From: a virus
Lineage: Duplodnaviria; Heunggongvirae; Uroviricota; Caudoviricetes
Length of the DNA: 6,441 nucleotides
Reading direction: 5' to 3' (one strand)
IMG/VR virus record: IMGVR_UViG_2690316278_000002
Positions 2,231-6,441 of this stretch are shown piece after piece. Every line of letters starts with the position of its first letter. Positions within the stretch are counted from its first letter, which is position 1. A program made the translations under genes and the position numbers. The notes under the pieces were generated by a model. That model did no database searches. It was not told where the DNA came from and saw only the letters and a program-made list of their open reading frames with translations.

Positions 2231-3092
2231 TTACTTCACAACTCCCGGAAAGCTGACATTTGAACGCCAGCTATCCCAGTTAAACGTCACCCACCGACAA
2301 CCGTTCATGGTCATGCGGTCCATAATCCTCTCACCAAGAAGCGTGCTCATTGCGGCATGATTCAGGTTTGTTAACANNNNNNNNNNNNNNNNNNNNNNNN
2401 NNNNNNNNNNNNNNNNNNNNNNNNNNNNNNNNNNNNNNNNNNNNNNNNNNNNNNNNNNNNNNNNNNNNNNNNNNNNNNNNNNNNNNNNNNNNNNNNNNNN
2501 NNNNNNNNNNNNNNNNNNNNNNNNNNNNNNNNNNNNNNNNNNNNNNNNNNNNNNNNNNNNNNNNNNNNNNNNNNNNNNNNNNNNNNNNNNNNNNNNNNNN
2601 NNNNNNNNNNNNNNNNNNNNNNNNNNNNNNNNNNNNNNNNNNNNNNNNNNNNNNNNNNNNNNNNNNNNNNNNNNNNNNNNNNNNNNNNNNNNNNNNNNNN
2701 NNNNNNNNNNNNNNNNNNNNNNNNNNNNNNNNNNNNNNNNNNNNNNNNNNNNNNNNNNNNNNNNNNNNNNNNNNNNNNNNNNNNNNNNNNNNNNNNNNNN
2801 NNNNNNNNNNNNNNNNNNNNNNNNNNNNNNNNNNCGCGTATTTTTGCCCGTCGTTCTGCACCTGATAATTCGCAAACGAGCATTTGCTGTGCAGAGGCTG
2901 GATGCCCGAACGATTCAGGATTTTTTCCACCCGCAACTGGCGATTCTGGCGGTTAATCTCCTCGCTGCGTTTTCGTCCTTCAGCAAGTTGCCATTCCCGC
3001 CACTCCTCCACCGTCCGGTACGGTGGAACCGCCCCCTGTGGTGCAAGTCTGTGAATACGTTCAAGAACCCCGGCTGCCGCAATGTTTTTCAT
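2231..3092 (-). CDS. DnaC-like replicative helicase loader (prophage paralog, YdaV-position); central ATPase region masked; apparent frame discontinuity across the mask
   Basis: N-terminus (3092 down to 2835) MKNIAAAGVLERIHRL...NRSGIQPLHSKCSFANYQVQNDGQKYA matches E. coli DnaC (...NRSGIRPLHQNCSFENYRVECEGQMNA) as I recall it. C-terminus (2376 down to 2231) LTNLNHAAMSTLLGERIMDRMTMNGCRWVTFNWDSWRSNVS matches the DnaC C-terminus (LTNSNMEEMTKLLGERVMDRM...WVIFNWDSYRSRV). The two visible parts are in different reading frames (span 862 nt = 3n+1). The start ATG is 6 bp downstream of the initiator's stop. Confidence 0.75.
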
Positions 3093-3098
3093 GCCACA

Positions 3099-4163
3099 TC
3101 ACCCCCTGAATCCCGGCGGAATTTCGGTATCCGGTTCAGAAATATGATTCACACAACGCTGGTTGTTCGTGCCGCTTACCGGGAGCAACCAGGGGTTTTC
3201 AAAATTCCGGTCCGGCCCAAAAAACGTCGTCGCTCGCTGAACAAATTCCGTTCCCGCTTTCCCGGTCGCCGCCAGGTATCTCGCGTAACGCCTCACACCA
3301 TCCAGCATGGTCTCTGGTGGCACCCCCTCGCGCAATCTGGCCTTCCAGGCACTGAATGCGGATTTCTTCGGGTTTGCCCCGGCACGCAACGGGTATTCCC
3401 GCCAGACCTGTTCGAACACATCCGGATAATCCACTCGTCCCACAGGCTGCCCGGTGTTTTCCGGGGCTACCCGATCGGCTTCCCGCTGAATGGCGGAATC
3501 GGCTTCAGGCTGCTGCAGTTGGAGTGATTGCTCCGGCCTTGCGGTCATCACCTGCTGCACAGCGCCCGAATCGGCTTTCAGCGCATACGCTGAATCGGCT
3601 TCCGGTGTCGAGCCTGCTGGCTGACCAGGATTGACGGTCTGAACATCCCCTGCCTGGTTCGTGGCGTTTTTTACGCCATGGACCATAGTGTTTTGATCTT
3701 CTTTATCTGTATCTTTATCTGTATCTGTCGTGACTCGTCGTGACATGTGCGTGACATTTCGTGACGCGCCGTGACAATCGCCATTTTGTTCCCGCTTTCT
3801 TTCCCTCTCTCGCTGCGCCCTCTTGCGCTCTGCAGGAGATTTTGCGGTTTGCGAAATATTGCCGTTGTCCTCTTTAAGCACCTGGCGTTTTTCCCATCCA
3901 GTGATTAAATCACCATCAAGTACCCGCCCCTGCATCGTCTGCAAAATTGAATCAATTACCTCTTCTGTCACGTCGAGCGCACTTGCCAAATCTTCTGTCG
4001 TGACATCAATGTGACCTCGCGTGACATTTCGTGACGCGCTCACCAGGAGGTGGATATACACTGCCATCACTGTTGCAATTGGCTGCCCTGACACCCTGGC
4101 AATTGTTCGCCACTTAGGGTCATTTGGCATGTCATGCCATAATCTGAGCCAGGCGTTAGCCAT
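3099..4163 (-). CDS. Phage replication initiation protein with DnaT-like C-terminal tail (YdaU-position), containing intragenic iteron-like repeats
   Basis: 354-aa ORF from ATG 4163-4161 with SD-like GAGGTGAGT immediately upstream (the track's first codon at 4169 is GTG). The C-terminus ...NHISEPDTEIPPGFRG resembles the C-terminal tail of E. coli primosomal protein DnaT (...VSEPDSQIPPGFRG, as I recall it). It sits immediately upstream of a DnaC-like gene, as in the chromosomal dnaT-dnaC operon. The protein carries an internal repeat SRNVT...VTT(E/D)D encoded by the GTGAC arrays. Confidence 0.7.
   Translation of the reverse strand: MANAWLRLWHDMPNDPKWRTIARVSGQPIATVMAVYIHLLVSASRNVTRGHIDVTTEDLASALDVTEEVIDSILQTMQGRVLDGDLITGWEKRQVLKEDNGNISQTAKSPAERKRAQRERERKREQNGDCHGASRNVTHMSRRVTTDTDKDTDKEDQNTMVHGVKNATNQAGDVQTVNPGQPAGSTPEADSAYALKADSGAVQQVMTARPEQSLQLQQPEADSAIQREADRVAPENTGQPVGRVDYPDVFEQVWREYPLRAGANPKKSAFSAWKARLREGVPPETMLDGVRRYARYLAATGKAGTEFVQRATTFFGPDRNFENPWLLPVSGTNNQRCVNHISEPDTEIPPGFRG
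3701..3724. repeat. Exact tandem duplication of the 12-mer CTTTATCTGTAT within a T-rich tract next to array A
   Basis: CTTTATCTGTAT at 3701-3712 and again at 3713-3724, followed by a partial CTGT. On the minus strand it encodes the low-complexity peptide DTDKDTDKED. Confidence 0.6.
3730..3775. repeat. Iteron-like array A: five direct GTGAC motifs phased at 10-11 bp
   Basis: GTGAC at 3730, 3740, 3751, 3761 and 3771 (spacings 10, 11, 10, 10). Contains the 19-mer GTGACATTTCGTGACGCGC (3751-3769), which recurs exactly at 4021-4039. Confidence 0.55.
3967..4039. repeat. Iteron-like array B: four direct GTGAC motifs phased at 10-11 bp plus one inverted copy
   Basis: GTGAC at 4000, 4011, 4021 and 4031. 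An inverted GTCAC lies at 3967-3971. TCTTCTGTC is repeated at 3961 and 3991. The 19-mer at 4021-4039 is identical to 3751-3769. Confidence 0.55.
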
Positions 4164-5459: not shown

Positions 5460-6441
5460 NNNNNNNNNNNNNNNNNNNNNNNNNNNNNNNNNNNNNNNNN
5501 NNNNNNNNNNNNNNNNNNNNNNNNNNNNNNNNNNNNNNNNNNNNNNNNNNNNNNNNNNNNNNNNNNNNNNNNNNNNNNNNNNNNNNNNNNNNNNNNNNNN
5601 NNNNNNNNNNNNNNNNNNNNNNNNNNNNNNNNNNNNNNNNNNNNNNNNNNNNNNNNNNNNNNNNNNNNNNNNNNNNNNNNNNNNNNNNNNNNNNNNNNNN
5701 NNNNNNNNNNNNNNNNNNNNNNNNNNNNNNNNNNNNNNNNNNNNNNNNNNNNNNNNNNNNNNNNNNNNNNNNNNNNNNNNNNNNNNNNNNNNNNNNNNNN
5801 NNNNNNNNNNNNNNNNNNNNNNNNNNNNNNNNNNNNNNNNNNNNNNNNNNNNNNNNNNNNNNNNNNNNNNNNNNNNNNNNNNNNNNNNNNNNNNNNNNNN
5901 NNNNNNNNNNNNNNNNNNNNNNNNNNNNNNNNNNNNNNNNNNNNNNNNNNNNNNNNNNNNNNNNNNNNNNNNNNNNNNNNNNNNNNNNNNNNNNNNNNNN
6001 NNNNNNNNNNNNNNNNNNNNNNNNNNNNNNNNNNNNNNNNNNNNNNNNNNNNNNNNNNNNNNNNNNNNNNNNNNNNNNNNNNNNNNNNNNNNNNNNNNNN
6101 NNNNNNNNNNNNNNNNNNNNNNNNNNNNNNNNNNNNNNNNNNNNNNNNNNNNNNNNNNNNNNNNNNNNNNNNNNNNNNNNNNNNNNNNNNNNNNNNNNNN
6201 NNNNNNNNNNNNNNNNNNNNNNNNNNNNNNNNNNNNNNNNNNNNNNNNNNNNNNNNNNNNNNNNNNNNNNNNNNNNNNNNNNNNNNNNNNNNNNNNNNNN
6301 NNNNNNNNNNNNNNNNNNNNNNNNNNNNNNNNNNNNNNNNNNNNNNNNNNNNNNNNNNNNNNNNNNNNNNNNNNNNNNNNNNNNNNNNNNNNNNNNNNNN
6401 NNNNNNNATGACGGCAGGGTTCAATCTTTAACTATGCAGCA

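Follow-up and report, generated by a model that had tools for sequence, protein, structure and literature searches.

A putative replication origin with two arrays of helically phased repeats inside the initiator gene of a lambdoid prophage

An origin within the linker-coding DNA of its own initiator is a well-described architecture, known from lambda O, pSK41 RepA and SPP1 gp38. In lambda, ori is located in the middle of gene O (PMC7466680, PMC3349717). Our direct check of lambda identified four iterons at gene nucleotides (nt) 349-433, followed by a purine-rich A+T tract and then by a palindrome (GTCAGAGAATTC/GAATCCTCTGAC); no iteron-like sequence was found in gene O upstream of ori. In pSK41, RepA_N binds four Rep boxes located centrally in rep, with the origin DNA encoding the linker, and in pPR9 the N-terminal domain and the origin have been exchanged as a unit (PMC5703833). 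In SPP1, oriL is part of gene 38, whose product, the replisome organizer gp38, binds it (PMC6316719). The present analysis concerns a 6,441-nt stretch of DNA from the IMG/VR virus record IMGVR_UViG_2690316278_000002 (Caudoviricetes), called the window hereafter, in which the gene of a replication initiator carries two arrays of short repeats. Judging from sequence comparison, this region is, with a probability of about 0.75, the vegetative replication origin of a lambdoid prophage, lying inside the gene of its own initiator and bound by the N-terminal domain (N-domain) of that protein. The features concerned are listed here in sense order, with window coordinates.

3099-4163, minus strand: replisome-organizer / replication-initiator gene, 354 amino acids (aa), ATG at 4163
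3999-4035, minus strand: array B (upstream array), four direct iterons, GTCACG, GTCACG, GTCACA and GTCACG
3967-3972, plus strand: single inverted iteron, GTCACG on the plus strand, coding for D64-V65-T66
3729-3775, minus strand: array A (linker array), five direct GTCACG iterons at gene nt 389, 399, 409, 420 and 430
3687-3728, minus strand: purine-rich A+T tract, sense AGATACAGATAAAGATACAGATAAAGAAGATCAAAACACT, coding for TDTDKDTDKEDQNT, directly after array A
3655-3685, no strand assigned: imperfect palindrome, sense ATGGTCCATGGCG-TAAAAAA-CGCCACGAACCA, directly after the A+T tract

The nine direct GTGAC motifs in two clusters, on which the original prediction of a candidate iteron origin was built, were all located again on the plus strand. 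The first cluster has them at 3730, 3740, 3751, 3761 and 3771 (spacing of 10, 11, 10 and 10 base pairs, bp) and the second at 4000, 4011, 4021 and 4031 (11, 10 and 10 bp). With five and four direct copies at a 10-11 bp spacing, both clusters contain the at least three helically phased direct repeats of an iteron origin. The hexamer CGTGAC is present nine times in the 6.4-kb window, once in inverted orientation, and 9/9 lie within 3729-4035; shuffled sequences contain 1.95 ± 1.37 copies, and at least nine were reached in 0/200 shuffles. An independent call by Tandem Repeats Finder (TRF) returned a period-10 array of 4.9 copies at 3727-3776. The exact 19-bp duplicate described earlier also holds: the 19-mer GTGACATTTCGTGACGCGC has two exact copies only, at 3751-3769 and 4021-4039, which are 270 bp apart, for a chance expectation of 0. 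The earlier inventory was correct for the arrays, and overlooked the inverted copy, the A+T tract, the palindrome and the minus-strand orientation of the gene, which makes GTCACG the sense reading of the repeats.

Both clusters lie, as had been proposed, inside the initiator gene, the 354-aa open reading frame (ORF) matching phrog_3729 'replication initiation protein' over its full length. Array A sits in the part of the gene coding for a disordered linker. Array B, the iterons of which start at gene nt 129, 139, 149 and 160, is located about 230 bp from array A and the A+T tract and codes for the end of the N-domain helix 29-45 and for a loop, placed at 46-55 by the AF2 model. In sense orientation, the inverted iteron follows array B at a distance of 27 bp, and its 12-nt context matches that of a linker iteron in inverted orientation at 11/12 positions. 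A DnaA-box-like sequence (TATATCCAC) just upstream of array B was dropped as a candidate, since it is not conserved in homologues.

The conservation of the repeats was analyzed in 55 diverse loci from bacterial genomes and in 80 close relatives from viral contigs. The hosts of the diverse loci include Enterobacterales, Pseudomonas, Bordetella, Acidovorax, Stenotrophomonas, Chromobacterium, Janthinobacterium, Sphingomonadales and Acidobacteria. Some 45 of the diverse genes have, as their most common 5-6-mer, a repeat forming two arrays, at gene nt ~117-160 and ~340-430; the linker array is present in nearly all of these homologues, and the array B position is occupied in most of them. Across the family, neighbouring repeats of an array are 10 bp apart in 151 cases, 11 bp apart in 37 and 20-21 bp apart in 15. 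The repeats and their 10-11 bp phasing are retained where N-domain identity is 50-70%, so that the refuting outcome named with the original prediction, loss of the phasing through synonymous codons, was not borne out.

A comparison of synonymous sites, suggested as a check along with the original prediction, gave a clear pattern in the 25 genes with GTCAC-type iterons. The iteron codons GCG (88%), TCA (92%), AAT (96%), GTC (100%) and ACG (100%), and the following ones GGT (100%), CAC (100%), GTC (100%) and ACG (92%), are fixed or nearly so (GTC, ACG, GGT, CAC and TCA all at 92-100%), and the array B codons A43 to T55 are frozen. At the other conserved residues of the same genes, synonymous variation is saturated, with, for example, six Leu or Arg codons in use. 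In the inverted iteron, V65 is encoded by GTG in 20/20 of the GTCAC-type homologues having Val there, and a homologue with GTAACG iterons (L024) carries the matching CGTTAC at this site. Within the narrower set of 81 E. coli-type copies, the 4+5 layout is intact in 79, and the density of single-nucleotide polymorphisms is 0.037 in the cores versus 0.133 elsewhere.

The two arrays encode the peptides ASRNVTRGHIDVTT and ASRNVTHMSRRVTT, and the protein repeat that the duplication had been said to create is indeed there (ASRNVT…VTT). One might thus see the repeats as a by-product of protein selection for a VT/SR-rich peptide repeat, or as the outcome of neutral duplication. The 10-11 bp period is no product of a peptide repeat or of codon periodicity, and the core starts are spread over all three codon phases (142/94/89). 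In addition, codons are fixed at fourfold and sixfold degenerate sites, including the rare TCA in GC-rich hosts, and the encoded peptides sit in a loop and in a disordered linker, which makes this explanation exceedingly improbable. The earlier expectation that coding constraint alone would hardly produce such repeats is borne out: as far as comparative evidence goes, the frozen synonymous sites and the use of three frames indicate that the repeats are conserved at the DNA level independently of coding.

The core itself differs in some family members. L026 has cores that overlap with a period of 5 nt (CGTCACGTCACGTCACG), at nt 160-181 and nt 412-451 of the gene. In L021, GTAACG and GTCACG are mixed in one array (gene nt 412-451), which suggests that core position 3 (C or A) may not be discriminated. 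L041 and L054 are devoid of the usual arrays and of the A+T tract; they carry (A)CTACGTA-type repeats after the N-domain (gene nt ~320-420), together with an inserted segment (…YVYYVATTDGDVVRVGISRNPW…).

The resemblance to lambda ori, which had been drawn from the intragenic position of the repeats, extends further, as a purine-rich A+T tract comes next after the linker array, and then a palindrome. In the window, the tract is 72% A+T versus 45% for the ORF, within the top 0.5% of the 40-mers of the gene. Over 41 loci, the corresponding tract has an A+T content of 0.70 versus 0.44 for the gene and a purine content of 0.76 versus 0.56 (Wilcoxon p ~3e-8), and it usually ranks among the top 1-3% most A+T-rich 40-mers of its gene. 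It takes the form AGATAAAGATAAAGA, CAGATACAGATACAGA or AGAGAAGAG, right after the last linker iteron. An A+T-rich element adjacent to the repeats, as in iteron origins, is therefore found at 3687-3728 as well as in the 41 loci, and the tract of the window is a candidate DNA-unwinding element.

Some further observations concern the tract and the linker-coding DNA. TRF called a 12-nt tandem repeat (TCTTTATCTGTA, 2.2 copies) in the tract, at 3700-3728. Gene length in the E. coli copies (L056-L135) ranges from 1062 to 1104 nt with a constant iteron layout, so it is the tract or the linker, and not the arrays, that varies in length. A third repeat, GAATCGGCTTC (sense GAAGCCGATTC, coding for EADSA), is found at 3496-3506, 3568-3578 and 3592-3602, and also within 3474-3509 / 3570-3605, which gives three to four copies in linker-coding DNA versus 0.1 expected. 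The natural length variants P0003, P0004 and P0008 resemble deletions between its copies, and the motif GAAGCCGATTCGGACGC was also seen in three homologues of 46-50% identity (L137, L139 and L201). A GATC site is located at 3693-3696, at the distal end of the tract, and likewise in most enteric homologues; its complementary strand reads GATCTTCTTTATC, which resembles an oriC 13-mer. Enrichment of GATC (Dam) sites in the tract is weak (15/45 loci versus 11.2 sites expected) and concerns mostly enteric loci.

The palindrome has a predicted folding energy of -8.7 kcal/mol (z -2.3) as single-stranded DNA. Homologues with 46-52% identity and many viral contigs keep it, with compensatory variants of the outer stem (GGTTC/GAACC, GGTCC/GGACC, GTCC/GGAC and GTCTC/GAGAC), in which the left-arm change is often synonymous and the right-arm change alters an amino acid. 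Among 14 distinct sequences, pairing is observed in 89% of cells versus 23-42% in slid registers, and double-sided changes number 16 versus 7.0 ± 1.8 in shuffles (0/500), this evidence coming from the outer stem only, as the inner stem was fixed by the search pattern. When all loci were searched for perfect-stem hairpins following the tract, the pattern was only partial; the palindrome belongs specifically to the lineage sharing the downstream module.

The repeats could alternatively be module-boundary or recombination sequences, or duplication relics, which are kept by gene conversion, bind no protein and would mediate mosaic exchange between lambdoid phages. In proteins with different N-domains, module joints do follow the A+T tract directly (…DKNTMVHG…), the tract and linker give rise to length variants, and the window has its exact 19-21 bp inter-array duplicate. 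The repeats themselves, however, are inside the N-domain module and not at its boundary, and what is conserved is a 6-bp core with helical phasing rather than long homology, with synonymous sites frozen as far as Sphingomonadales and Acidobacteria. Covariation of the spacers between the two arrays of one locus, as expected under concerted evolution, is weak: exact matches between arrays average 11.5 nt within a locus, barely more than the 10.0 nt between loci (GTCAC type), so that the duplicate of the window is no general feature. This view of the repeats is rated as very unlikely.

Which protein goes with the repeats can be approached through their variation. The core varies by lineage (GTCACG, GTAACG, CGAACG(C) or GGAACG) and is identical in both arrays of one gene. 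The neighbouring cII-like, cro-like and DnaC-like genes and the C-terminal domain are common to just 2-4/54 loci, which leaves the N-domain as the only protein always linked to the repeats. Natural swaps point in the same direction. In L002, the N-domain is the same and the C-terminal domain differs, and ten GTCACG copies are kept. In P0033/L136, the C-terminal domain is the same (94% identity), with an N-domain devoid of detectable similarity (hhalign probability 0.3%); here, zero GTCAC motifs are present, and AAGGGGCTT repeats occur instead at an 11-bp spacing. Among enterobacterial elements, two of them from E. coli/Shigella, at least three cores are found, and each of them goes with its own N-domain or N-domain lineage, which is evidence against a host factor.

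The repeats might also serve a factor or function other than the initiator: cII-type activation of an antisense promoter, a host protein, partition (as a centromere of the ParR type) or packaging. Activators of the cII type recognise direct repeats spaced by one helical turn, and centromeres of type II are built from arrayed repeats of 10-11 bp. A weak sigma-70-like match also overlaps array A on the plus strand, although promoter-like matches are at chance level (2 versus 1.7). The cII-like and cro-like neighbours are shared by only 4/54 loci, no partition or terminase genes are linked, and the multiplicity of cores in enterobacterial elements speaks against a host factor; this reading is regarded as highly improbable.

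Other initiators share the downstream palindrome and the C-terminal module and have other N-domains: L136 (1685-1709 and 1941-1976), L155, L152 and L201 (MRDYAKVSPRFWLG, MRNYATISPQFWLG, MASSWIKVEVITPDKPE and MLKVIGMARYRKIEVQMWGD). Their own repeats are AAGGGGCTT, GTAACGC/GCGTTAC or AAAGCCTTT, and L155 also has AAGCCCCTT in inverted orientation. These repeats form two clusters about 250 bp apart, the second of which adjoins a (CAGGAA)n purine tract. Compared with the N-domain of the window by hhalign, two of the other types show no similarity and one shows a weak one (probability 10%).

In the initiator, a winged-helix domain at the N terminus (aa 1-~128) is connected by a disordered linker (aa ~129-242) to a helical domain at the C terminus. 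Public sources label its product 'phage replisome organizer'. The full protein matches no Pfam family at E <= 0.01 and no NCBIfam family, and a search of the N-domain alone against Pfam at E <= 10 gave only weak matches to PF09681 and HTH_Crp_2. The PF09681 match scores 16.6 bits (gathering cut-off 23.3; E 0.008) with profile positions 1-119/121 aligned, and at E <= 0.01 this family is detected in just 2/25 diverse members. Neither PF04492 (Phage_rep_O) nor PF06970 (RepA_N) is matched by the full protein at E <= 0.01 or by the N-domain at E <= 10. The N-domain is a winged helix similar to those of RepA_N and of the N-terminal domain of DnaD (DnaD-NTD), the latter being the best structural match. 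A Foldseek search of the PDB with the low-confidence full-length model (predicted local distance difference test, pLDDT, of 58) returned nothing significant, and a profile search of PDB sequences with the initiator returned chance matches only.

The window corresponds to the part of a lambdoid prophage devoted to immunity and replication, and several runs in it are N-masked. The plus strand encodes a cI-like repressor, and the minus strand carries genes for a Cro-like helix-turn-helix protein and a cII/YdaT-like protein, the initiator ORF, a DnaC-like loader gene and a DUF1627 gene. The loader gene, directly downstream of the initiator gene and partly N-masked, is the following.

2331-3092, minus strand: DnaC-like helicase-loader gene, NCBIfam PRK12377 and DnaC, phrog_50 'DnaC-like helicase loader'

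The N runs at 126-553, 1006-1220, 2377-2834 and 5460-6407 hide parts of several genes, including most of the loader gene and, in the repressor gene, the C-terminal part; which genes these runs contain was deduced from relatives only. A scan of the whole window with Rfam found no RNA family. The same DNA is present at 97% identity in seven E. coli phage records, and the annotation of the one record inspected, that of phage Tritos, contains no origin feature. The replication module is found in 1,717/5,426 complete E. coli genomes, including CFT073, and metagenomic data add several hundred homologues, 765 of them at E <= 1e-10.

In the proposed mechanism, the core origin would be composed, in the sense direction, of array A with its five GTCACG iterons, the 40-bp purine-rich A+T tract and the short palindrome. 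The winged-helix N-domains of the initiator would bind the iterons of array A side by side on one face of the DNA, and the tract next to them would be melted by this complex. Extrusion of the palindrome may occur, or the palindrome may assist in loading the helicase or primosome. Host DnaB and the phage DnaC-like loader, the likely partner of the C-terminal domain, would be recruited by that domain. Array B and the inverted copy most likely form a second binding array of the same protein, which may cooperate with array A through DNA looping or wrapping, as an enhancer or a control site.

Several points weigh against an origin bound by the N-domain. Searches of the literature yielded no report of binding, melting or initiator-dependent replication. 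As judged by the profile searches, the N-domain is no recognised member of any initiator Pfam family, and DnaD-NTD itself does not bind DNA (PMC7145576). The contrast in normalised synonymous entropy (0.18 in iterons versus 0.82 outside for the GTCAC type; 0.12 versus 0.74 for the GAACG type) stems from a partly circular test, the iteron columns being defined by motif presence; the per-codon table is free of that. Array B is missing in several loci (L036, L028, L030, L040, L043 and L045) and is thus not essential, being auxiliary at the family level. One of these, L036, from a Noviherbaspirillum metagenome-assembled genome, has a GAACG-clade N-domain with GTCACGCC linker repeats, a misfit to any simple match of domain and iteron. 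It has GTCACGCCAT three times before the purine tract (gene nt ~360-400) and no array in the N-domain coding sequence, which points to a switch of specificity or to an exchange limited to the origin. Taken with the mixed arrays of L021, its sequence indicates that domain and core do not correspond one to one.

The arrays could also bind the initiator with one or both of them controlling replication rather than initiating it. Array B in particular could then be an autoregulatory roadblock or a titration site in the 5' portion of the gene, or a handcuffing/copy-control array like P1 incA. Plasmids offer well-known examples of iteron arrays used for control (PMC5397158), some members that retain array A and the A+T tract do without array B, and its distance of some 230 bp from this tract is without equivalent in lambda. 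Its occurrence at the same gene position, with the core of array A, across very distant hosts and the recurrence of the two-cluster layout with unrelated N-domains suggest instead a part of the origin design, and a purely controlling role is considered unlikely.

It is conceivable, and put forward tentatively, that the origin is truly bipartite, array B being required and looping or wrapping to the tract-side array, as a general rule in a large class of proteobacterial prophage replicons. Such a two-cluster design, with ~230-260 bp between the clusters, would have arisen with at least two N-domain types lacking detectable sequence similarity to that of the window (AAGGGGCTT and AAAGCCTTT) and with a third (GTAACGC/GCGTTAC) that is at most distantly related. 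The last-to-last distances between the arrays cluster at 249, 258 and 270 bp, and the mutual helical phase of the two arrays is not resolvable over ~250 bp. If the origin is bipartite, the loop and linker peptides of these initiators would be dictated by the needs of DNA-binding sites and not by protein function.

An origin bound by the initiator N-domain would define, for a widespread family of modular prophage replicons, both the origin and its specificity determinants, namely the N-domain and the iteron core. This would help to predict replicon incompatibility or immunity between co-resident prophages, and would be useful for conditional vectors and for the interpretation of copy-number peaks after induction. 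It would also exemplify overlapping codes clearly, since the DNA coding for a protein loop and for a linker would have its sequence determined by the needs of binding sites. The recurring two-cluster layout raises a question absent in lambda, namely whether the upstream array acts as loop partner, enhancer or copy control.

Of the known systems, lambda shares with this locus an origin in the linker-coding part of the initiator gene, with iterons at gene nt 349-433 in lambda and 389-435 here, and the same order of iterons, purine-rich A+T tract and palindrome (PMC7466680, PMC3349717). In lambda and its six-iteron Stx-phage variants as well as here, specificity goes with the N-domain, and extra iterons lengthen the protein. 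The lambda iterons, however, are inverted repeats of 18-19 bp placed ~20-24 bp apart, and such iterons with internal dyad symmetry are replaced here by a 6-bp direct core per helical turn. O has no second upstream array comparable to array B, the initiator here is no Phage_rep_O protein, and its loader is DnaC-like and not lambda P. The RepA proteins of pSK41 and pTZ2162 have a DnaD-NTD-like winged-helix N-domain, as does the present initiator. They differ by their PF06970 family, which has no match here, and by their hosts, RepA_N being found in Firmicutes plasmids and the present family in proteobacterial prophages. In SPP1, direct repeats and an A+T-rich unwinding element inside the organizer's own gene are bound by that protein (PMC6316719); this locus likewise has direct repeats and a candidate unwinding element within its initiator gene. 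Public sources also name the present protein 'phage replisome organizer', and its alignment to PF09681 is full-length and scores below the gathering threshold. The second SPP1 site, oriR, is ~13 kb away, whereas array B is found 230 bp upstream within the same gene.

The literature searched contained no description of an origin for this family, though a prior description is possible, nor, for RepA_N systems, of a second array in the N-domain coding sequence. The original prediction had not recognised the architecture as a described one, yet an origin in initiator linker DNA is well described, and only the array in the N-domain coding sequence is unusual. What differs from the known systems is this array, the 6-bp direct core repeated once per helical turn, and their combination with a lambda-like tract and palindrome.
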